64,000 bases of DNA. Origin: Candidatus Omnitrophota bacterium. Lineage in GTDB: Bacteria > Omnitrophota > Omnitrophia > Omnitrophales > Aquincolibacteriaceae. Shown here one piece after another: positions 4,061 through 30,469 of this stretch. Location: the NCBI GenBank assembly GCA_022709525.1, contig JAKLIQ010000002.1:262003-326002 (forward strand). The letters are read 5' to 3'. The first letter of the stretch is position 1. Each line of letters opens with the position of its first letter. The position numbers and the translations under genes were made by a program. The notes beneath the pieces were generated by a model, which made no database searches, was not told the origin of the DNA, and saw nothing but the letters and a program-made list of their open reading frames with translations.

Positions 4061-4837
4061 TTATTCCCGGCCGGACGAGAATTTCCGCATTTCTTCGCTC
4101 AAAAGGATCGCCTCCGAGACTTCTTTCATGCTCTTGCGGCGGTCCATGCTGTATTTTTGGATAAGCTTATAGGCCTCCTGTTCGTTCAGGTTCTCTCTTT
4201 TCATGAGAAGGCCCTTGGCGCGTTCGATCGCTTTTCTTGATTCCAGCTCTTCCTGGATCACCTGCGATTCGGCGACGAGCCGGAAGTTCTCAATAACGAT
4301 CGCCGCCTGGCTCGCGATCGAACGGATGACCCGGATCTCGTTCTGGGTAAAACGGCGGGGCTTCACGGTATAGCAATTCAGCACGCCGATCACCGTACCC
4401 TTAAAAACAAGCGGCACGCTTAAAAGCGAGCAAAGATTCTCTTTTTTGGCGATGGCTTGGTTCAGGTACCGCGCGTCCTTCCGGACATCAAGGACTGTGA
4501 TCGGTTTTCCCTGCTGGGCCACCCTTCCCGCAATGCCTTCCCCGAGTTTCGCGTTCGGTTTTTTGTTATAGAATTCGCTTATGGATTGCGTCGCTTTGAC
4601 GACAAGTTCGTTCGTGTCTTTATCCAGGAGCATCAGCGAGCATATTTTGGAATGCATGGTCTCGGCCGTGACGGTCACGATCAGCTTGAGGATCTCCTCA
4701 AGATAAAGGTTTGAAATGACGGCATCGCTGATCTTGGCTAACGCGTCGATGACCTGTCTGTTATTAATGGGTTTCATAGATTGAAAGCCTTTCTCCCGCC
4801 CCCGGATTTTCCATATTTTACACGATTCGTGGATCAA
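4061..4837 (-). CDS. GAF domain + ANTAR (RNA-binding antiterminator) regulator
   Basis: Central GAF-like region and a C-terminal ANTAR signature AIERAKGLLMKRENLNEQEAYKLIQKYSMDRRKSMKEVSEAIL. The real start is possibly the internal ATG at 4777 (MKPINN...). Confidence 0.75.
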   Translation of the reverse strand: MIHESCKIWKIRGREKGFQSMKPINNRQVIDALAKISDAVISNLYLEEILKLIVTVTAETMHSKICSLMLLDKDTNELVVKATQSISEFYNKKPNAKLGEGIAGRVAQQGKPITVLDVRKDARYLNQAIAKKENLCSLLSVPLVFKGTVIGVLNCYTVKPRRFTQNEIRVIRSIASQAAIVIENFRLVAESQVIQEELESRKAIERAKGLLMKRENLNEQEAYKLIQKYSMDRRKSMKEVSEAILLSEEMRKFSSGRE

Positions 4838-4851
4838 TGCGGAATAGGATT

Positions 4852-6288
4852 CTATGCCTTCCCCGTTCGATCGTAGGCGAAAAGAGCCCGTTTGCGGGCC
4901 GCATCGTGATCGATGATGGGACGAGGATAGTTTTGACCGAGCTTCACGCCCGCTTTGGTAAGAACCTCCAGCGGCGCCTGCCAGGGCTTATGAATAAATC
5001 TCGAGGGCATCCCGGAAAGCTCCGGGACCCAGCGACGGACGTAGGATCCTTCGGGATCGAATTTCTCGCCTTGCAATACAGGATTGAAGATCCGGAAATA
5101 AGGCGCGGCGTCCGCGCCGCATCCGGCGGTCCATTGCCACCCGAACGTATTATTCGCAAGATCCGCGTCCGCAAGCGTATCCATGAACCAGGCGGCTCCC
5201 GTTTGCCACGGCTGGAGCAGGTCTTTCACCAGAAACGAAGCGACGATCATCCTCACGCGGTTATGCATCCACCCGCTTCCCCACAATTGGCGCATCCCGG
5301 CATCCACGATCGGGTATCCTGTTCCGCCTTTCTGCCACGCGCGCAATACCCGGCGGTTGGTTTTCCACGGGAATTTGGAGAATTCTTTCCGGAGCGGCCT
5401 GGAAACGGTTCCGGGAAAATGATAAAGGAGATAGTAAGAAAATTCCCGCCAAACAAGCTGCCGCAAAAATGCCTCCGAGGATCTTGCCGAGCCGGGCCGG
5501 CGGTCCGAAGCGGCGTGTTTGCGCGTTGCATGCCAGACCTCGCGGATGCTGATCTCGCCGAAATGAAGGTGCGGGGAAAGCCCGGAAGTTCCCTTTACGG
5601 CGGGATTATTATGCTGGATGGGATAATCCTTGATCTTCTTCTTCAGGAATACCCGCAAAGCCGCTAAAGCCCCCTCGCTGCCCGGATCCCAAAACATGGC
5701 GAGTTTGCGGGGCCATTTCCCTTTCGGCCCTAATTTCAGGTCCTTGATCTTTTCAGAACGCGGCCAAACGGAGGGCGAAATCAACCGGCCGTAAGATTGA
5801 AACGGAGCGGAAGGTTCGGTCAAAGACAAGCAGTGATTCCAAAATGGCGTAAAAACCTTGAAGGGTTTGCCTTGCCGGTTGAAGATCCTCGCAGGGTTAA
5901 AAAGAAGGCTGTCATTGATAGAATCGCAAAAGGTCCCTTTCCGGAGAAGCGCGGCACGGATCTTTGCGTCTTCCTTCCGCTGCTCCGGTTCAAAGCTTTC
6001 GTCCCAAAGGACGGCACCAGCTTTTGATTCTTTGATAAGCGCTTGAAGGGCCTTGAGGGCATTTCCTTTACGGAGAATGAGCCGGGAATCCAATGCACGG
6101 AGATCGCGGTCGAGACTTTGAAGCGAACGCTCAAGCCACCATCGGCTTACGCTGCCAACAGCGGGATCATTGCCCCATATATAAACAAGGATCACGGGAC
6201 CGCCGCGACCTGAAGCGGCCTTCAGGATAAGGTTGTCCTTCGCTCTGAGATTCCGGCGAAGCCAAACAAGCGTGGGCGGACGAAGCAT
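4852..6288 (-). CDS. phr: deoxyribodipyrimidine photolyase / cryptochrome-family flavoprotein
   Basis: Photolyase N-terminus LVWLRRNLRAKDN and the FAD-binding C-terminal motifs TGYPIVDAGMRQL and WMHNRVRMIVASFL. Start placed at internal ATG 6288 (MLRPPTLVWLRR...). The ORF-track N-extension overlaps the receiver gene. Confidence 0.85.
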   Translation of the reverse strand: MLRPPTLVWLRRNLRAKDNLILKAASGRGGPVILVYIWGNDPAVGSVSRWWLERSLQSLDRDLRALDSRLILRKGNALKALQALIKESKAGAVLWDESFEPEQRKEDAKIRAALLRKGTFCDSINDSLLFNPARIFNRQGKPFKVFTPFWNHCLSLTEPSAPFQSYGRLISPSVWPRSEKIKDLKLGPKGKWPRKLAMFWDPGSEGALAALRVFLKKKIKDYPIQHNNPAVKGTSGLSPHLHFGEISIREVWHATRKHAASDRRPGSARSSEAFLRQLVWREFSYYLLYHFPGTVSRPLRKEFSKFPWKTNRRVLRAWQKGGTGYPIVDAGMRQLWGSGWMHNRVRMIVASFLVKDLLQPWQTGAAWFMDTLADADLANNTFGWQWTAGCGADAAPYFRIFNPVLQGEKFDPEGSYVRRWVPELSGMPSRFIHKPWQAPLEVLTKAGVKLGQNYPRPIIDHDAARKRALFAYDRTGKA

Positions 6289-22512: not shown

Positions 22513-24603
22513 TTAATGTTTTCTCAAAAAGATCCCGGAGATCAGGATGGAAAGCAGGAACCGGACGAACAGGACCGATTCCTCGACCGTTGCAAAAAAA
22601 AGACGGATATAATTGATCCCCCAAATGTTCCCGCGTTTCCAGGCGCTCCCGACATTTTCCCAAAAATGCTGCAGAGGAGCGCGCGTAAAAGTCAGGCGGA
22701 GTGAAAAAATATTCCACTTGTCAAGCCAGAGCCGGAATCCGGAGGGGGTCCGGAACCGGTAGACGCCTTTTTTCTCAAGCGACGCGGCGGCCTTCCGGTA
22801 AAGATTTTGAAGTTCTGAAACGCGAAGGTCGCGCCATTCTTTGGCGCACTGGGTCAGACGAGCGATCTCGGCGATCACTTTTTGTTCCAGCGGCCCGCGG
22901 CGGCGCGTTGCGAGCCAGACCTCTTCAAGCTCCAGCGCCAGTTTCCACCGTCCCCTCATCGCTCGCAGGATGTCGGAACATCTTCGTTTGAAATAGGTCC
23001 AGCGATCCTCGATCGGATAACCCGAGCGACGCTCCAGGCGTCCTTTCAAGCGGAAAAACCCGCAGATCATCGGATGCCCGCCTTCCACGTCGATGGAATT
23101 CTTATACCACATGAAATTCGAAAAAATACCCCAGTAATTATCTCCCTTGAGGTCCCTTGCCAGGATCCGCCTCATATTTTCCGTGCTGTAAAAGGTCTGC
23201 CAGGCGGCTTCATAAGCGGCAAGCCATTCCCCGGGTTTCATTCGGGGATGGCGGTGAGTCTCATGGAATGTGTCGTAGTTATTAAGATCGGCGTCCAGCA
23301 GCATCCCTTTTTCTAAAGCATTTTTGTAATCCATGGAACCCGGGAGCGGCGTCATCATGAAAAATGACGCTTGCCCGGCGCCGAACGACATCAGTTTTTC
23401 AACATCCTGTCTGACCGACTCCGCGGTGTCCAGGGGAAATCCAATGATGTAGGCTAAGTGGCAAACGACATCCACTTCATGAAAGGAATCCACCAGTTTT
23501 TTAAAATTCTCGATATCGTTCTGGTTCTTCTTCGCCGCTTTGAGATTTTCCTGGTTCAAGCTTTCGATGCCGATAAAGACTTGGCGGCAGCCGGCTCGGG
23601 CGGCTTTTTCCACAAAATTAGGTACCGTGTGGGCCTGAGTGTCCAGCTGCATCATGAAATGGAACGGGATCCCCTCTTTTTCCTTCAATTCGATAAGCCG
23701 GTCCAGGATCGTTTCCCAGTTCTTGTGGCGGCAGAAATTATCATCGGTAAAAAAGTAATGCGAAATGTTGTGACGGCGATAATCCTCGCGGATCCTCTGG
23801 ATCAGGAGATCCACGTCGCGGAAGCGCATCTTACGGCCCTGAACATTGATCACGGTGCAGAAACTGCATCCGAAGGGACATCCGCGGCCGCAATCAAGCG
23901 TCCCGAAGTGTTCAAGCGCGTAATGCTTCTGGTGTTTGGGGTTGATCCTCGGGAACGGGGCCTTGGAAATATCCGGGATATCGTTCAGGAAATTATAAAC
24001 GGGGCGGAGGCGGCCTTGCATCGCGTCACGAAGCAATCGCTCCCAGTGACCGCCCTCGGCCTCGCCGGCCACAAGGATCACGCCGGCGTTCTTGAGCGTC
24101 ACAAGTTCCGGGGAAAGATCCGGCAAGGTCGCCATGATGCCGCTGACATGAAACCCTCCGATCAGGACATCGATCCCCGCTTTTCGAAATTTTATCGCGA
24201 TATCGGAGGCGCGCGGAAATTGATTGGACTGGACCCCGACCAGACAGATCACGGTCTTGGTTCCGGCTTGGCGATCCTTCCGGGCGATCTTCCGGTAAGG
24301 GATCTTTTGGACCGTATCATCGATGAGCGTGATATCCCATGCCAGGTCCTTCCCCAGGACCTCGCGCTCACGGACATCCTCACTAAGACCGTTCAGGCAG
24401 GAAAGCGTATTGCTTGGCAGAACGCCCTTCCAGTAACGGATCAAATAGCCCTCGTCATCGTACTTGGAGGGCTTGATCAGATAAAGGCAGAGGCGCTTGT
24501 ATTTGTGAGAACAAGTTCCGGCAGGCCCTTCGCCTTGAGCTTCAAAAGAGGCTCCCGAGGCGCGGCCCAATTCAGAGGTTATGGGATTTTCTCGAATTTG
24601 CAT
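22513..24603 (-). CDS. class-B (B12-binding domain) radical SAM enzyme, long form (~696 aa)
   Basis: B12-binding domain (TKTVICLVGVQSNQFPRASDIAIKFRKAGIDVLIGG), a radical-SAM motif CGRGCPFGCSFC, and a ~250-aa C-terminal extension. The first ~35 residues look non-conserved, so the true start may be internal or non-ATG. Confidence 0.85.
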   Translation of the reverse strand: MQIRENPITSELGRASGASFEAQGEGPAGTCSHKYKRLCLYLIKPSKYDDEGYLIRYWKGVLPSNTLSCLNGLSEDVREREVLGKDLAWDITLIDDTVQKIPYRKIARKDRQAGTKTVICLVGVQSNQFPRASDIAIKFRKAGIDVLIGGFHVSGIMATLPDLSPELVTLKNAGVILVAGEAEGGHWERLLRDAMQGRLRPVYNFLNDIPDISKAPFPRINPKHQKHYALEHFGTLDCGRGCPFGCSFCTVINVQGRKMRFRDVDLLIQRIREDYRRHNISHYFFTDDNFCRHKNWETILDRLIELKEKEGIPFHFMMQLDTQAHTVPNFVEKAARAGCRQVFIGIESLNQENLKAAKKNQNDIENFKKLVDSFHEVDVVCHLAYIIGFPLDTAESVRQDVEKLMSFGAGQASFFMMTPLPGSMDYKNALEKGMLLDADLNNYDTFHETHRHPRMKPGEWLAAYEAAWQTFYSTENMRRILARDLKGDNYWGIFSNFMWYKNSIDVEGGHPMICGFFRLKGRLERRSGYPIEDRWTYFKRRCSDILRAMRGRWKLALELEEVWLATRRRGPLEQKVIAEIARLTQCAKEWRDLRVSELQNLYRKAAASLEKKGVYRFRTPSGFRLWLDKWNIFSLRLTFTRAPLQHFWENVGSAWKRGNIWGINYIRLFFATVEESVLFVRFLLSILISGIFLRKH

Positions 24604-24610
24604 GGGGACG

Positions 24611-24732
24611 GATTATAACCCAATTCCCCACCAACTCCTAGAAATGGTTTCCACCGCACGCCGTACGTGGTAGGTGGTAGGCAGTAGGTCATTTCAATCA
24701 ACCCACCACATACGACTTACCACATACTGTTC
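24611..24732 (-). promoter_or_regulatory. intergenic region with short direct repeats and a -10-like box upstream of the long radical-SAM gene
   Basis: Minus-strand reading shows GTATGTGGT twice (5-nt spacer), CCTAC three times, and TTATAAT 8 nt before the ATG. Confidence 0.3.
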
Positions 24733-25254
24733 CTAAAATTCGACCCCGGGTTGGGCCGGAACACCGCGATCAAAAGGATGCTTCACGCATCTCATTTCGG
24801 TGACAAGATCGGCGGCTTTAAGAAGGGCCTTGGGAGCGCCGCGGCCTGTCAGGATCACATGCTTCGTTTTAGGTCTTCGCCGAAGCGTCCGGATCACGCC
24901 CGGGATGTTCAGGAATTTATATTTAAGGGCAATGTTGATCTCATCAAGGATCACGAGCGCGTACCGGGGATCGCGCAGCAGCTGAACGCATTTTTTCCAG
25001 GCATCCCGCGCGGCTTTGAGATTTTCTTTCCGCGAAGTTTGCCAGGTAAATCCGCCGCCGAAACTCCAAACCTTGAATTGAGTATGCGGCAACATGTGGC
25101 GGCTTGGCGCTTTAAAAAATTGCACCATCGCGACGCGTTTGCCGTGTTTGATCATACGGACGGCCGATCCTACGGCGGCGGTTGTTTTCCCCTTCCCATT
25201 ACCGGTAAAAACCAGGATCAATCCTTGTTCCCGCTTCGCTTGCCGTATTTTCAT
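24733..25254 (-). CDS. cobA: cob(I)yrinic acid a,c-diamide / cob(I)alamin adenosyltransferase (CobA/BtuR/CobO family)
   Basis: Near-colinear with E. coli BtuR: ILVFTGNGKGKTTAA...VQF.K...L...FTW...DE......L....VI.TGRG. 5-nt gap after the TonB-dependent receptor. Confidence 0.85.
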   Translation of the reverse strand: MKIRQAKREQGLILVFTGNGKGKTTAAVGSAVRMIKHGKRVAMVQFFKAPSRHMLPHTQFKVWSFGGGFTWQTSRKENLKAARDAWKKCVQLLRDPRYALVILDEINIALKYKFLNIPGVIRTLRRRPKTKHVILTGRGAPKALLKAADLVTEMRCVKHPFDRGVPAQPGVEF

Positions 25255-25259
25255 TTCTG

Positions 25260-27350
25260 TTAATACTCCAATGAAAGACCGGACACGAATCCGCGCCCTT
25301 GAGCCGGATAATATCCTACCTGATTTGTACCGGAACTGTAACCGGCATATTCGGAATATTTCATATCAAAAAGGTTCGTCAATGACGCCCACGCCGTTAC
25401 CCAACGCCAGTGGTAACGGGCCTTAAGGTCCACGGTCGTATAGGCCTTAACTTTGGCGGCGTTATTGGTCGGATCGCTAATGGCGAAACGGCTGCTTAAG
25501 TGATTCAATTCCGCGGAAACCGTGAACCCCTTGACCGGCTCGGCGACGAATCCTGTCGCGTATTTGAATTCCGGCACGAAAGGAATGATCTTATTGGCGT
25601 AATCCCCGCCTTTAAAGTAGGGCTTTTGGACCGTCAGGTTGAAAAACGGTTTGATGTTGAACCAGCGTTTTTCAAAAAGCTTCAAGGAGGATTCCATTTC
25701 AAAGCCGTAGCGGCGCGTCGGAGAAATATAGTTGGAGTTCGCGAAGGTAAGCGGGTCGTAATAAAGCTCATCTTTGATGTCCGCTAAGAAAACATTCATG
25801 GCGACTTGAAGGGGTTTGTAGGTGTTATCACGAATGCCTAACTCATAATTCATTTCCTGTTGCTGCTTGAGTCCCGAATTCAGACCACCCGCCACCGGGC
25901 CCGTCCAGGAGATATAGGTATTCTGGTAGAATTCTTCGGTGGTCGGCGTTCGGAAAGAACGCGAAATATCAAAATAAGCGATAGAACGTTCGTTGTAACG
26001 GAACCCGATCCCGAAATCGAACGCCGGATCGCGCATGCTCGCCGTGTCGCGATTGGTCAGAGCGGCGGTCTGATTGAACCAGTAATTGGTCCATGCCCCT
26101 CGGAACCCGAGATTCAGAAGAAGTTTGTCCCAGAAAGTCAGGGTTTCGAGGATATAAACGCCGAGCGATTTTTTGGTGATATGAACTTCATCCTGGCCGG
26201 GCGCGCGATTGCCGCTCCGGATGCTGTCTTGGGCCGAAAAAAGATCGATCCCGGTCGTCATCTTGCTTGCCAGCCAATCCGTCAGGCGATACGTCCACTG
26301 GATCTTGGGCTGGAATTCATAAGTATCGATATGATGGATCGTTTCCCAATCGCCCCACGTGGATACAGAACTCCCTTTGCTTTGCCGGCGCCGGAATGAA
26401 TTGAACGCGGAAAGTTCAAAACCGTTCTTTCCAAGTTCAAAGCTCCACTTAGGGTCCGCGGTAAAAAAAGTCTCCTCGGTCCAGCCGCGGTCCTGCGAAT
26501 GCGTGCTGCCCCTGCGACCGATCGATTCAATGTCGTTCATAAAAAGCGCGCCGGGCATACCGTAGCGGTCTTTGTGAAAACCCGCTGTGAGATCCAGTCC
26601 CGCGCCATAAAAGGGCCCGACCCCGAGCTTGCCGAACCAGTCATTGGCCCAATAATCCGTATTGGTGCGCCAGCCGCCGTCCTGCGTATTTTCAAAATGA
26701 AAAGAGCCGCGGGCCCAATCGGTCGCCGCGGACACGGTCCCGCCGTTACGTTTATATTTATGGAGACCGATCTCGGTCTCGGCCTTTGCGTGGATCCCCG
26801 GTTCGATTTTTTTTGTGACGATATTGATCACGCCGCCCGCAGCGTTGTCGCCATATAGCACGGCAGAAGGACCGCGAATGATCTCGATGCGGTCAATGAT
26901 CGAGAGCGGAATCGCCGCCCAATCGGTGCCGGAAAGATCGATCTGATTGGTCCGGCGCCCGTCCACAAGAACAAGCACGTTCGTCCGGCCCGATTCCCCA
27001 AACCCGCGAATGTCGACCGACATGCCTTTGGGATTATCCTCCGTTTTGGTAACGACGATCCCCGCTTTAGATTTCAAAAGGTCGGGCACATAAAGCGCGG
27101 TGGAATTTTGGATCTCCTCCTGATCGATCACGGAGATGCTGCGGGTAATGTAAGAGCTTGAGTCGTCGGAACGGGTCACTTCCAGATGGATCGTATCCTG
27201 CGGGGTTTTTCCTTCTTCGACTTTCTTGGAAGTGTCCTGCGAAGATCCGTTCTCGGCGACCGGTTCCGGTGTTTCTATTTTTGGTTTTTGGGCCCAAACG
27301 GACGGGCTTAGAAAAAAACAAAGGATGCAAACTAAGAAAATCTTTTTCAT
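25260..27350 (-). CDS. TonB-dependent outer-membrane receptor (BtuB-like corrinoid receptor candidate)
   Basis: Signal peptide, a plug domain (IVVTKTEDNPKGMSVDIRGFG..NVLVLVDGRR) and a C-terminal beta-barrel. It is preceded by a cobalamin riboswitch. Confidence 0.8.
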   Translation of the reverse strand: MKKIFLVCILCFFLSPSVWAQKPKIETPEPVAENGSSQDTSKKVEEGKTPQDTIHLEVTRSDDSSSYITRSISVIDQEEIQNSTALYVPDLLKSKAGIVVTKTEDNPKGMSVDIRGFGESGRTNVLVLVDGRRTNQIDLSGTDWAAIPLSIIDRIEIIRGPSAVLYGDNAAGGVINIVTKKIEPGIHAKAETEIGLHKYKRNGGTVSAATDWARGSFHFENTQDGGWRTNTDYWANDWFGKLGVGPFYGAGLDLTAGFHKDRYGMPGALFMNDIESIGRRGSTHSQDRGWTEETFFTADPKWSFELGKNGFELSAFNSFRRRQSKGSSVSTWGDWETIHHIDTYEFQPKIQWTYRLTDWLASKMTTGIDLFSAQDSIRSGNRAPGQDEVHITKKSLGVYILETLTFWDKLLLNLGFRGAWTNYWFNQTAALTNRDTASMRDPAFDFGIGFRYNERSIAYFDISRSFRTPTTEEFYQNTYISWTGPVAGGLNSGLKQQQEMNYELGIRDNTYKPLQVAMNVFLADIKDELYYDPLTFANSNYISPTRRYGFEMESSLKLFEKRWFNIKPFFNLTVQKPYFKGGDYANKIIPFVPEFKYATGFVAEPVKGFTVSAELNHLSSRFAISDPTNNAAKVKAYTTVDLKARYHWRWVTAWASLTNLFDMKYSEYAGYSSGTNQVGYYPAQGRGFVSGLSLEY

Positions 27351-27397
27351 TTTTTACCTTTCACGCGAAGGAAAACCCGGCCGTTGTCTCCTGGCTC

Positions 27398-27520
27398 TTG
27401 GCAACCTACTCTCCGGCCTTCCCGCCTTTTTCAGGCAGTGGCCTCAAGGATTTCGTTCCAAGTTACAGTTGCGCGGCAGCAACGGATTTGCACCGTTTTC
27501 CGAAAACCGTCCGGATCCGC
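27398..27520 (-). promoter_or_regulatory. cobalamin (B12) riboswitch upstream of the TonB-dependent receptor
   Basis: Minus-strand RNA reads GGUGCAAAUCCGUUGCUGCCGCGCAACUGUAA...GAGGCCACUGCCUGAAAAAGGCGGGAAGGCCGGAG. This matches the conserved GGUGC, AAUCC, GCCACUG (B12 box) and GGGAAGGCCGG elements. Confidence 0.75.
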
Positions 27521-27521
27521 T

Positions 27522-28274
27522 TCATGTTCCTTTCTTGAAATAGGTTGAATGTGACGCTACCGAAAAAAATTCCGCGATCCTTTCCGGCCGTAAAAATTCC
27601 CCGGCAGGACCTGTCGCGGCCATTTTCCCCGAGCGGAGCATCACAACACGCCCGAGAAAAGGCTTCAGCCATTCCCATTGATGCGAGATCACGGCCACGG
27701 TCAGCTTTTCGCGCTGCTGTAGCCGCGTCAAAAGTTCAAAAAGGCCGATCTGCTGACGGATATCAAGATTGGAGACCGGCTCGTCTAAAAGAAGGATCTT
27801 AGCCTGCTGGCAGATCGCGCGGGCGATCTCAACGCGCCGCCTTTCGCCGCCGCTTAATTGAAGGATCGAGCGTTTGGCGAAACGCAGGGTGTCGGTCGCT
27901 TCCATCGCCCATGCGGCGCGCTCAAGATCCTCTTTGCGGTTCCAAAAACCGTGGGGCGCGTTCGGGAACCTTCCCATCAGGACCAGCTCCTCGACCGTGA
28001 ACGGAAAAATATAGGCGGCGTCCTGCTCGAGATAAGCCGCTTTGCGCGCGATCTCCAAGGCATTCATTCTTTCAACCGGGTTTTCAAAAAGAAAAGTTTT
28101 TCCCGAACGCGGCCGAAGCCAGCCAAGCGCGAGTTTAAAAAGTGTGGTTTTTCCGGCGCCGTTTTCGCCCAAAAAAAGCGTCATGCTCCCTTCTTCGAGC
28201 GAACATGAGAATGAATCGATATGAAAAGCGCTCCCGTATTGAAAGCTGACATCGCGCCACTCGACAGCGTTCAT
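27522..28274 (-). CDS. btuD: ABC transporter ATP-binding protein (cobalamin/iron-siderophore type)
   Basis: Walker A GENGAGKTT, ABC signature LSGGERRRVEIA and Walker B ILLLDEP. Start at internal ATG 28274, which overlaps the btuC stop as ATGA. Confidence 0.85.
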   Translation of the reverse strand: MNAVEWRDVSFQYGSAFHIDSFSCSLEEGSMTLFLGENGAGKTTLFKLALGWLRPRSGKTFLFENPVERMNALEIARKAAYLEQDAAYIFPFTVEELVLMGRFPNAPHGFWNRKEDLERAAWAMEATDTLRFAKRSILQLSGGERRRVEIARAICQQAKILLLDEPVSNLDIRQQIGLFELLTRLQQREKLTVAVISHQWEWLKPFLGRVVMLRSGKMAATGPAGEFLRPERIAEFFSVASHSTYFKKGT

Positions 28275-29251
28275 GAGATCACCCGTTTTCCTTCGCGCCT
28301 TTTGAGGATGACGATAAAGAACGGAACGCCTAAAAGGGCTGTCACGATCCCGACGGGGATCTCCGAAGGATAGAAAAGAGAACGCGCGAGCATATCGGCT
28401 CCGGCCAAAAGAACACCGCCGGCCCAAGCGCTCACGGGCAGGGAGCGGCGAAGGTCCGAACCGACAAAAAGCCGGGCGACGTGCGGGCTCATCAGCCCCA
28501 CAAAGCTGATCATGCCGCTTAAAGAGACCGCCGCGCCTGTCAGGATCGCGGCGGCGATAAAAAGAAGGATTTGGGTTTTTTCGACGCTTACGCCGAGCGA
28601 ACGGGCGGCGGATTCTCCCAGCGAAAGCAGGTTCAGTTTCGGCGCTTGCCTCATGAAGAAAAACCCCACGATACCGAGCGTGATAAATAAAAAAAGGATC
28701 TGAGCATAACCTGCCATGGACAAATTCCCTAAAAGCCAGTTAAAAGCTGCCGCGGTATCGTCGGAACGGAAAAGCGACTGGCAAAAAAGCATCAGCGACA
28801 CTAAAAAGGAATTGATCATGACGCCGAGAAGAAGCAGCGTGTACATGGAAAGCGCGCCTTTGCGCATGGAGAGCAGGAAAACAAGAAAAAGCACCGCGAG
28901 GGCCCCCAGCCCGGCAAATACGGGGAAAAATGAGAAGGAGAACCCAAACACCGCGCAGATCCATACTCCCGCGCCGGCGCCGGCGGAAACTCCGATCAAA
29001 TGCGGGTCGGCCAGAGGATTCCTGAAAAGGGACTGAAACACGGCGCCCGTCACCGCAAGCGACATCCCGACCCCCCAGGCGAGCAGGAAACGCGGTAATC
29101 TTAAATAAAAAAAGAGGAACCGGTCCTGTTCGCTCGCAAGGTCAAGAAGCCCGCGAGGACCGACAAGATTTAAAAAGAGCAAGCCGGCGGGGATAAACAT
29201 CAAGATGAGAAAACTCCGCAGCGCCCGTTTAGACATGGATCTTCTCCGCAT
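28271..29251 (-). CDS. btuC: FecCD-family ABC permease (BtuC-like)
   Basis: About 9-10 TM segments and FecCD-family similarity. Confidence 0.85.
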   Translation of the reverse strand: MRRRSMSKRALRSFLILMFIPAGLLFLNLVGPRGLLDLASEQDRFLFFYLRLPRFLLAWGVGMSLAVTGAVFQSLFRNPLADPHLIGVSAGAGAGVWICAVFGFSFSFFPVFAGLGALAVLFLVFLLSMRKGALSMYTLLLLGVMINSFLVSLMLFCQSLFRSDDTAAAFNWLLGNLSMAGYAQILFLFITLGIVGFFFMRQAPKLNLLSLGESAARSLGVSVEKTQILLFIAAAILTGAAVSLSGMISFVGLMSPHVARLFVGSDLRRSLPVSAWAGGVLLAGADMLARSLFYPSEIPVGIVTALLGVPFFIVILKRREGKRVIS

Positions 29252-30131
29252 AAGGATTTTCAGGACCCGGCGTGTCTTCAGCCGCTAATGTGACCGTTTC
29301 AAGCCACATCGGCGTTCTGGGGCCCGGTACCGGAAGCGCTTCTTTTTTAAAAAGATAAACACGCCCTTCGCGTACAGCTCTTAGAGCGCGGTATTTCCCC
29401 CAGAATGCGCGGGCTTCTTTCATTTCGTCGGCCCAGGATTTATCCCGCTCAAACGCGCTCGCGTCAAGGATCACATCCGGGTCCTCCCTGAAAACCGCTT
29501 CCATGGTCCATTTGGGATACCGTGTCCGGCTGGATCCTGCGATATTTTGAGCACCGATCGTCCGGAGCGCGTCATCTTCCATGGTTCCCTTGCCCGCGAC
29601 GATCAAAGGGAAACGCCATGCGACATAAAGCGCTTTTATTTTTGGATCCTGAAGGGCGCGATCACGGTATTTTTCTATTTCCCCGGAGATTTTCTGGCGC
29701 GCGGTTTTCGCTTCCCGCTCATGCCCCGAAACTTCCCCCAAAGCTGAAAAACTTTCAAGAAGATCTTCCAAGGAATAAAACGAAACGGAGATAACGGGTT
29801 TGCGGAATTCGACGAACTTTTCATAAATGATCCGCGTTCCCGAATTCGGGGTAACGGTCACAAGATCGGGGCTGCGCGCCAGGATCGCTTCAAGGGAATG
29901 ACGGTCGAATCCGCCGATCCGCGGGATCTTCCGGGCTTCGGGCGGCCAGACGCAGAAATCGGTCACGCCCGCGATCTGAGGGCCCGCGCCGATCGCGAAA
30001 AGGATCTCGGTCGTGGAAGGAGAAAGAGAAACGATTCTTGCCGGACGTTGATCCGCGGATGTTTCCGCAAAACCGCCGGCCGGAAGAAGAAAACAAATCA
30101 AAAATAAAGAACAAAGACCTTTCGGAAACAA
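29229..30131 (-). CDS. btuF: periplasmic cobalamin-binding protein (BtuF-like ABC substrate-binding protein)
   Basis: Signal peptide and a BtuF-like fold (RIVSLSPSTTEILFAIGAG..GVTDFC). The first codon appears to be TTG at 30131-30129, located right after the leader hairpin. Confidence 0.8.
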   Translation of the reverse strand: MFPKGLCSLFLICFLLPAGGFAETSADQRPARIVSLSPSTTEILFAIGAGPQIAGVTDFCVWPPEARKIPRIGGFDRHSLEAILARSPDLVTVTPNSGTRIIYEKFVEFRKPVISVSFYSLEDLLESFSALGEVSGHEREAKTARQKISGEIEKYRDRALQDPKIKALYVAWRFPLIVAGKGTMEDDALRTIGAQNIAGSSRTRYPKWTMEAVFREDPDVILDASAFERDKSWADEMKEARAFWGKYRALRAVREGRVYLFKKEALPVPGPRTPMWLETVTLAAEDTPGPENPYAEKIHV

Positions 30132-30133
30132 AA

Positions 30134-30167
30134 AGCCCTTTCCGCCTCAAAGGGGCAAGAAAGGGCT
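30134..30167 (-). promoter_or_regulatory. riboswitch expression platform: SD-sequestering hairpin / terminator abutting the btuF start
   Basis: Minus-strand RNA AGCCCUUUC-uugccccuuugaggcg-GAAAGGGCU is followed by UUUUUG-UUG(start). The 3' arm contains the SD GAAAGGG. Confidence 0.5.
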
Positions 30168-30264
30168 AGCCTGTCTTGACCTCTGCTCGGAGGCATTTTA
30201 AAAATCTCAAATCTGAAATTTGAAATTTATGGATAATGGGTTGATATTCTGACTAGGCAAGTAC

Positions 30265-30385
30265 AAACCTACTCGCGGCCTTCCCGCCCTTTAATCTTGC
30301 TCGGGGCAGTGGCGATTCGCTTTCGTCCTTACCGACAGCGGCGGCACCGTGGAGTCCCCGCAAAACTCAGCGGGTCTCTCTTCCC
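30265..30385 (-). promoter_or_regulatory. cobalamin (B12) riboswitch upstream of btuF-btuC-btuD
   Basis: Minus-strand RNA reads GGUGCCGCCGCUGUCGGUAAGGACGAAAGCGAAUCGCCACUGCCCCGAGCAAGAUUAAAGGGCGGGAAGGCCGCGAG. It carries the GGUGC, AAUCGCCACUG (B12 box) and GGGAAGGCCGC elements. Confidence 0.75.
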
Positions 30386-30469
30386 AAATGCTCCCATTAT
30401 CATACTTTCTTCAAAGAACGATAATCTTGACGTTCAGTATAAAGAAAAAACTCATCAGCGCAACGTTTT

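Follow-up and report, generated by a model that had tools for sequence, protein, structure and literature searches.

The minus strand of a 64,000-nucleotide (nt) stretch of DNA from a Candidatus Omnitrophota bacterium (assembly GCA_022709525.1, contig JAKLIQ010000002.1, positions 262,003 to 326,002; referred to here as the window) carries a btuF-like gene at 30131-29229, the first of an operon whose products have Peripla_BP_2, FecCD and ABC_tran domains. The riboswitch described here lies 5' of this operon. Its leader contains a divergent match to the cobalamin riboswitch aptamer, a small hairpin that we assign as P13/L13, and a longer, terminator-like hairpin that ends a few nucleotides before a TTG start codon. 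We consider it probable, at roughly 0.7, that the leader is a cobalamin (corrinoid) OFF riboswitch controlling the btuFCD uptake operon. Coordinates refer to the window, and all features lie on its minus strand.

A divergent cobalamin aptamer

When the entire window was searched with Rfam cmscan, three matches exceeded the gathering scores, two of them to Cobalamin and one to nhaA-I. The Cobalamin match in the btuF leader (RF00174) covers 30412-30222 and the complete model (positions 1-189), with an E-value of 1.3e-6 and a score of 39.9 bits, above the gathering score of 31.5. This confirmed an earlier, sequence-only reading of the same DNA, which had proposed a cobalamin riboswitch at this place; its upper limit of 30385 was too short, as it cuts off P1 of an aptamer that reaches 30412. 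The motifs GGUGCC, AAUCGCCACUG and GGGAAGGCCGC named in that reading were all located on the minus strand. Homologous aptamers were found by the same model in two close relatives, L001 (32.1 bits) and L002 (43.2 bits).

Like RF00174 riboswitches that precede btuF or btuFCD, the RNA has the GGGAA, GCCACUG, CGGGAAGGC and AGUCAG... motifs and a C-rich L5, forms the leader of a B12 uptake operon and would follow OFF logic; the core motifs GGGAAG, GCCACUG (30313-30307) and CGGGAAGGC (30286-30278) were located in the aptamer. Unlike a typical member, it scores only 39.9 bits, has next to no P2 region, carries an enlarged P4 hairpin without the usual GGUGnnAAUCC loop, and has GAAUAUC in its B12 box. 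The box reads AGUCAGAAUAUCAACC versus the expected AGYCMGGAGACCKGCC, deviating in the GGAGACC part. These features are common to L001 and L002, which differ from the window in having a larger insert of two hairpins at P2. Several model pairs of the window RNA are non-canonical. The L5 loop UGCCG, closed by GG/CC, was placed at 30346-30342 from the Rfam alignment, and we propose it as a kissing-loop partner. Between P1 and P13, RNAfold gave a small A/U-rich linker hairpin (30205-30225), a variable element that is replaced by much bigger hairpins in L001 and L002. We have high confidence in the predicted identity of this RNA as a cobalamin aptamer.

A 10-nt leader motif, GUUCUUUGA(A/U), occupies 30410-30419 of the window, just past the candidate promoter, and occurs in every related leader (L001-L005 and L083-L092). 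It is kept although the adjoining P1 sequences differ, and in the window and L083 it can pair just 3' of P1 as a P1 extension.

The TTG start and the hairpin that precedes it

Five codons before the TTG at 30131-30129, the reading frame of the btuF-like gene is closed by an in-frame TGA (30149-30147). No ATG or GTG stands in between, making this TTG the first possible start. At the homologous position, the start codon is TTG in L001 and L002, ATG in L003, directly past the same AAAGGG hairpin arm (AAAGGGUUUUUAUGUUU), and GTG in L005 (AAAGGGCUUUUGUGUUU); the next codon is TTT in each. The gene of L001 is called from the same TTG. The N-terminus of the window protein, as read from the TTG, aligns with the signal peptides of the orthologues. 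Comparison of codons 1-18 between L001 and L002 showed five synonymous and two non-synonymous differences. Judged by these alignments, the TTG at 30131 is very probably the start of the btuF-like gene, as had been claimed from the sequence.

The orthologue P0002 (L002, 5079-5976) is called in public data from an internal GTG, giving a protein of 280 amino acids. The conserved TTG-TTT, in frame, and a full signal peptide are present approximately 18 codons upstream, and the call is probably truncated. Placing the start at the TTG would fix the true btuF start both for this genome and for the mis-called orthologue.

Immediately before the start codon lies the terminator-like hairpin (30167-30134), formed by a 5' arm AGCCCUUUC(U) at 30167-30159, a 3' arm (G)GAAAGGGCU at 30142-30134 and an apical GCC...GGC. 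RNAfold gave it -17.7 kcal/mol (z = -3.1), and only 1 of 200 shuffled sequences folded equally well. The SD-like (Shine-Dalgarno-like) purine-rich sequence GGAAAGGG lies within the 3' arm (30143-30136), as had been noted earlier, and 2-3 nt separate the end of the stem from the TTG. The hairpin begins approximately 110 nt past GGGAAGGCCGC and only approximately 55 nt past the 3' end of the aptamer; the earlier reading had put it about 100 nt past the aptamer. Directly 3' of the hairpin is the U-rich tail UUUUUGUUU (30126-30134), with eight U in 9 nt and the start codon inside it. The U5 run described earlier is present at 30134-30130; it does not precede the start but overlaps it, its final two U's being the first two bases of the TTG. 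A scan for terminator-like sites also flagged this hairpin with its tail.

The hairpin is kept in L001, L002, L003, L005 and L089, and the equivalent U-rich tails are UUUUUUGUUUU in L001 and L002, UUUUUAUGUUUUU in L003 and UUUUGUGUUU in L005; in L004, L087 and L089 such a tail is short or missing. Since the arrangement is repeated in the two close relatives L001 and L002, and with variations in approximately ten distant ones, a chance layout is not plausible. Sequences of the GAAAGG and GGAG types stand as SDs before many ATGs of the window, including that of the receptor gene after the other riboswitch. Because the SD lies in the 3' arm, the hairpin ends 2-3 nt from the start and such SDs are common in the window, initiation would very likely be blocked whenever the hairpin forms, and we regard occlusion of both SD and start as likely. 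The purine-rich P6 strand of the aptamer could also pair with the 5' arm of the hairpin (AAAGGGC:GCCCUUU), but this is probably chance complementarity between purines and pyrimidines.

The proposed P13/L13 hairpin and a putative kissing loop

Between the aptamer and the terminator-like hairpin lies a second, weaker hairpin, GCCUC[CGAGCA]GAGGU (30194-30179; -5.4 kcal/mol), the loop of which (30189-30184) is the proposed L13. It was compared in a set of related leaders comprising 13 loci and 8 distinct sequences. The hexaloop CGAGCA is invariant in all 13 loci. In the alignment of the 8 distinct sequences, 97.5% of the cells are paired, both sides change in three of the five pairs, and the covariation score was reached by no shuffle. 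In the window lineage the stem is GCCUC/GAGGU; most Omnitrophota relatives have GUCUU/AAGAC, and L092 has AUCUC/GAGAU.

The loop is complementary to L5: UGCCG and CG(A)GCA can form five Watson-Crick pairs with one bulged A, and an equal fit is offered by 19 of 4096 random hexaloops (0.46%). L5 UGCCG is itself invariant in the related leaders. Functional L5-L13 kissing loops may need as few as three pairs (PMC10327014). A P13 loop starting with CGAGC recurs with the identical L5 in Nitrospirales, on unrelated stems (CCCUU/AAGGG). Because the stem covaries, the loop is complementary to L5 and the CGAGC loop recurs in Nitrospirales, we propose that 30194-30179 is P13/L13 and the kissing-loop partner of L5. 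This hairpin and the antiterminator described below, which would make the device switchable, are absent from the sequence-only reading.

Two other pairings were considered and rejected. The loop of the terminator-like hairpin offers a partner for L5 in the window lineage (GGCGG versus CCGCC), but distant relatives are without it, whereas all have the CGAGCA loop. A helix between CGAGCA and UGCUUG in the 3' part of the aptamer is not conserved, judging from the window and L087.

The Nitrospirales sequences come from five loci in metagenome-assembled genomes (MAGs; L019, L024, L030, L060 and L062), which have high-scoring cobalamin riboswitches near 4640-5520, before TonB receptor genes. Their L5 is GGUGCCGCC, their P13 is CCCUU[CGAGC..]AAGGG and the SD AAGGGAGG lies 5-8 nt before the ATG. 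As read from these sequences, they pair the same L5/L13 with a different platform, in which the ribosome-binding site (RBS) is placed directly in P13.

Predicted folding of the expression platform

In folding predictions, the strands of P13 and the linker CAAGACAGG can also find partners in the terminator-like hairpin, namely in its 5' arm and its loop, giving a predicted ligand-free antiterminator/antisequestor at 30144-30194 with the helices CAGAGG:CCUUUG, CAAGA:UCUUG, AGG:CCU and GCCUC:GAGGC. As far as can be judged from folding, this structure would be mutually exclusive with P13 and the terminator. The nascent RNA was folded at increasing lengths, counted from the start of P13. P13 formed first; the antiterminator was the minimum free energy (MFE) structure at 47-59 nt, reaching -19.0 kcal/mol at 51 nt; and once the 3' arm was added, P13 together with the terminator won, at -23.4 kcal/mol and lower. 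For the full platform, the energies were -25.3 kcal/mol for P13 plus terminator (the OFF fold), -20.7 kcal/mol for the antiterminator and -12.0 kcal/mol for P13 with only the small linker hairpin.

The same succession of folds was predicted in six relatives (L001, L002, L003, L005, L089 and L092; group A). In three lineages, a change in the P13 stem is accompanied by a change in the partner strands of the antiterminator, these being GCAAAGACA:UGUCUUUGC in most relatives, GAGAU:AUCUC in L092 and AGAGG/GCCUC:CCUUU/GAGGC in the window lineage. That the OFF fold is the full-length MFE without regard to ligand fits a kinetic decision made during transcription.

Proposed mechanism

In the mechanism that we infer, binding of the ligand would bring L5 UGCCG into a kissing interaction with the P13 loop CG(A)GCA, and P13 would thereby be locked. 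The strands downstream would then be free to form the strong hairpin at 30167-30134, which would bury the SD-like GGAAAGGG in its 3' arm and reach to 2-3 nt from the TTG, so that the 30S subunit could not load. Because UUUUUGUUU directly follows it, the hairpin is probably also an intrinsic terminator, with the RNA released around the start codon. Without ligand, the marginally stable P13 would open, and its strands together with the linker would, during synthesis, base-pair with the terminator's 5' arm and loop. The resulting antiterminator (about -19 to -21 kcal/mol) would let the polymerase read through and leave the SD and the TTG exposed. The full switch would accordingly comprise promoter, aptamer, P13/L13, antiterminator and a combined terminator and sequestor.

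Alternative explanations

Several observations weigh against this mechanism or parts of it. L5 and L13 are invariant within the family, so that the kissing loop is supported by complementarity and not by covariation. The SD is weak and has only 4 nt between it and the start. In the relatives, the terminator's lower stem is nearly invariant, with only one compensatory pair and no significant covariation, and its conservation might reflect the SD alone. A generic terminator scan of 20 kb was modestly enriched (48 sites versus 33 +/- 6 expected), which is of no help in deciding whether the host uses intrinsic terminators. Others concern termination and the aptamer, and they are given with the alternatives to which they belong.

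The alternative that survives best is a riboswitch acting on translation only. The hairpin would then be a pure sequestor of SD and start, the U run would be a by-product of the U-rich spacer and the UUG-UUU codons, no significant termination would occur, and any effect at the mRNA level would be indirect, for instance through Rho or decay. In accordance with this, L004 (GGGCCAUG), L087 (GGGCUUAUG) and L089 (GGGCCUAUG) have a hairpin close to the SD and no usable U tract; termination is thus not family-wide, and part of the U run in the window is coding, as UUG UUU. In the L083-type leaders (group B), the MFE structure is the antisequestor, and enforcing P13 gave a sequestor 2.5-5 kcal/mol higher, so that these leaders behave in the predictions as thermodynamic translational switches. 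The second riboswitch of the window, when read by eye, puts its SD beside a P13-like hairpin, although RNAfold did not predict it, and translation is also the level at which the classical btuB and env8 switches act (PMC10327014). On the other hand, in the window, L001, L002, L003 and L005 a long hairpin (-12.7 to -17.7 kcal/mol) leads directly into a stretch of 9 nt with 7-8 U. The full-length RNA moreover favours the OFF fold by approximately 4.6 kcal/mol without ligand, and a purely equilibrium translational switch would therefore be permanently off. L089, in which the OFF fold is the MFE structure without a U tract, weakens the argument that a kinetic switch must be a transcriptional one. 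On balance, we regard a translation-only switch as unlikely, and for real intrinsic termination in the window the chances appear about even. The combined transcriptional and translational OFF control suggested by the sequence-only reading stands insofar as the arrangement matches a published class (see below); its transcriptional half is the conditional part, and three of the related leaders are without the U tract that it would need.

According to a second alternative, the aptamer is degenerate and either blind to cobalamin or a sensor of another corrinoid or ligand, the hairpin being a constitutive attenuator or otherwise regulated. The aptamers of the window lineage score only 32-43 bits, compared with 68-125 bits for the btuF riboswitches of more distant relatives, and ligand binding is thus not guaranteed. 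The window has no P2, GAAUAUC stands in the B12 box in place of GGAGACC (AGUCAGAAUAUC instead of AGCCAGGAGACC), and L001 has CCCACUA in place of GCCACUG. However, the deviations are common to three genomes (window, L001 and L002) whose BtuF proteins are only 75-87% identical, and the P1 sequences differ yet still pair, which points to selection. Because the deviations are shared and P1 differs while still pairing, the comparison argues for a functional variant over decay. The lineage has also kept L5, P13/L13 and the antiterminator logic, and the score is still above the curated threshold. A degenerate aptamer is therefore very unlikely in our view, although the deviant core could reflect an altered corrinoid selectivity.

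Least likely of all, and hardly credible, is that another codon serves as the start, such as the second in-frame TTG (30101), with the hairpin and U tract lying wholly in the 5' untranslated region: TTG is a weak start codon and a gene caller took the later GTG for P0002, but a start at 30101 would truncate the signal peptide, deprive it of a charged n-region and leave the start without a suitably spaced SD, the position equivalent to 30131 is ATG in L003 and GTG in L005, and the frame from 30131 is kept as a signal peptide, the changes between L001 and L002 being mostly synonymous.

Comparison with known riboswitches

Most components of the cobalamin OFF riboswitch proposed here have precedents. 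In the Priestia megaterium metE riboswitch, a P13 stabilized by a kissing loop allows the terminator to form and free P13 strands form the antiterminator, a logic that has been demonstrated genetically (Kennedy et al. 2023; PMC10327014). The window resembles it in having a weak P13 that would be stabilized by an L5-L13 kissing loop and a terminator that would form with ligand. It differs in that the 3' arm of the terminator is the SD, the start codon lies in the U tract, and the antiterminator draws on the linker and the 5' arm of P13 as well.

Barrick and Breaker (2007; PMC2258182) defined a class of 'dual transcription and translation attenuation', in which the RBS is in the terminator's 3' side and the hairpin is within 10 nt of the start codon (<=10 nt); platforms of this kind were first noted for TPP (thiamin pyrophosphate) riboswitches (PMC2258182). 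Judged by its sequence, the arrangement in the window fits this definition whether or not termination is real: the RBS is in the terminator's 3' side and the hairpin is 2-3 nt from the start. Unlike the class as described, the window has its TTG start inside the U tract itself. The dual character appears to be lineage-specific, because close relatives of the leader family are without a U tract.

The window also shares features with E. coli btuB and env8HyCbl, namely an L5-L13 kissing loop that depends on ligand and has an unpaired nucleotide, and occlusion of the RBS, both predicted on the side of the window. In env8 the RBS is within L13/P13, whereas in the window P13 is separate, approximately 12 nt upstream of the SD hairpin, and would act by strand exchange.

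Earlier work has already described cobalamin riboswitches preceding btuFCD, uptake loci with two riboswitches each, a P13 controlled by a kissing loop together with an antiterminator, and RBS-containing terminators, and the locus adds little new biology beyond annotation. It does offer a natural series of orthologous leaders from uncultivated, Omnitrophota-like bacteria, in which one aptamer and P13 are combined with platforms ranging from the translational to the terminator type, and which may be of use in studies of the evolution of expression platforms. The U run at the start reads UUUUUAUG in L003, UUUUGUG in L005 and UUUUUUG in L001 and L002. A speculative and rather improbable reading of the series is that the btuF leader family has been remodelled between a thermodynamic, translation-only sequestor (short GC hairpin, no U tract, ATG) and a kinetic terminator-plus-sequestor whose U tract runs into the coding sequence. 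In the window lineage, TTG would have been favoured over ATG/GTG as the start, and UUU at codon 2, because the uninterrupted U run is thereby lengthened. Were this true, terminator function would shape the choice of start codon.

Gene context and candidate promoter

The leader follows the stop codon of a gene for a transporter of the major facilitator superfamily (MFS; stop at 30472-30470). Just 3' of this stop, a sigma-70-like promoter candidate was read from the sequence at 30436-30463, with -35 TTGCGC (30463-30458), a 16-nt spacer and -10 TATACT (30441-30436). Comparison of the sequences showed the same TTGnnn-16-TATACT layout at the equivalent place in L001 and L002. A stricter promoter scan of the window did not list the candidate at 30463-30436, and its assignment is accordingly put forward as a candidate only.

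The btuF-like open reading frame (ORF) encodes a protein of 300 amino acids with a signal-peptide-like N-terminus (MFPKGLCSLFLIC...) and a class III periplasmic binding protein domain (Peripla_BP_2, PF01497; residues 33-264, E 1.1e-27). Its top NCBIfam match is BtuF (NF002894), with 87.8 bits versus an equivalog cut-off of 234; it passes the cut-off of the TroA_like subfamily (68.2 bits versus 30). Some sources label its homologues 'cobalamin-binding protein'. The product is best termed a BtuF-like periplasmic corrinoid-binding protein, the corrinoid specificity of which we infer from the riboswitch and the neighbouring genes.

Downstream, a btuC-like permease and a btuD-like ATPase with FecCD and ABC_tran domains are encoded at 27522-29251, with overlapping stop and start codons. 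The top NCBIfam matches are BtuC for the permease and corrinoid/heme ABC ATPases for the ATPase. The mechanically derived ORFs at 28271-29251 and 27522-28427 begin too early. The likely start of btuC is ATG 29236, giving an 8-nt overlap with btuF, and that of btuD is ATG 28274, which overlaps the btuC stop as ATGA; both agree with the lengths of the L001 genes (321 and 250 amino acids). The overlaps along btuF-C-D suggest translational coupling.

After btuF, the order on the minus strand is FecCD permease, ABC ATPase, second riboswitch, TonB-dependent receptor (27350-25260), BtuR/CobO and a B12-type radical SAM (S-adenosylmethionine) protein, and the whole is a locus for corrinoid uptake and utilization. 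The BtuR/CobO adenosyltransferase and the radical SAM protein are encoded at 22513-25254, directly 3' of the receptor gene. The top matches of the latter, a protein of 696 amino acids, are B12-binding radical SAM methyltransferases, all far under their cut-offs; it is possibly a B12-dependent consumer encoded within the uptake locus.

Relatives and the second riboswitch

A search of genome contigs with the single BtuF protein returned no relatives, and an alignment-based repeat found them. The closest homologues of the btuF product are metagenomic (P0001, 87% identity, and P0002, 75%), and the next, approximately 42-55% identical, are from Candidatus Omnitrophota MAGs. L001 and L002 were the only close relatives of the window lineage available.

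The second cobalamin riboswitch, before the gene for the TonB-dependent receptor, was found at 27501-27386 (80.3 bits; model positions 47-167 only). Its start lies 20 nt past the btuD stop, and 35 nt separate its end from the receptor ATG. The B12 uptake locus would thus be under riboswitch control at two points. The two riboswitches had been described as independent and as a sign of how strongly the locus is tuned to corrinoid supply. A second riboswitch does exist; because it lies only 20 nt past the btuD stop, it may act inside the polycistronic operon mRNA and need not be independent of the first. L001 has the same pair, and L007, L012, L019 and L020 also have two cobalamin riboswitches approximately 3 kb apart, so that two riboswitches per B12 uptake locus are common and no special feature.

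The platform of the second riboswitch (to 27348) can be read by eye as a hairpin CCUU[CGCGUGA]AAGG, in which the 3' arm contains the SD GAAAGGU and the loop sequence CGCG is complementary to the L5 of the same RNA (CCGCG). RNAfold did not predict the P13-like CCUU/AAGG hairpin in this platform, and the reading by eye stays tentative. In the group B relatives, only 17 nt separate btuD from the TonB receptor gene, leaving no room for a riboswitch (L083 5888-8874 versus window 27350-27522); in the window lineage (window and L001), the second riboswitch is inserted between btuD and the receptor gene.

The nhaA-I match, to a candidate family of Na+-responsive riboswitches, lies at 63178-63126 (48.9 bits, gathering score 37, full-length), upstream of the ORFs 62934-62050 and 62101-59831 on the same strand.

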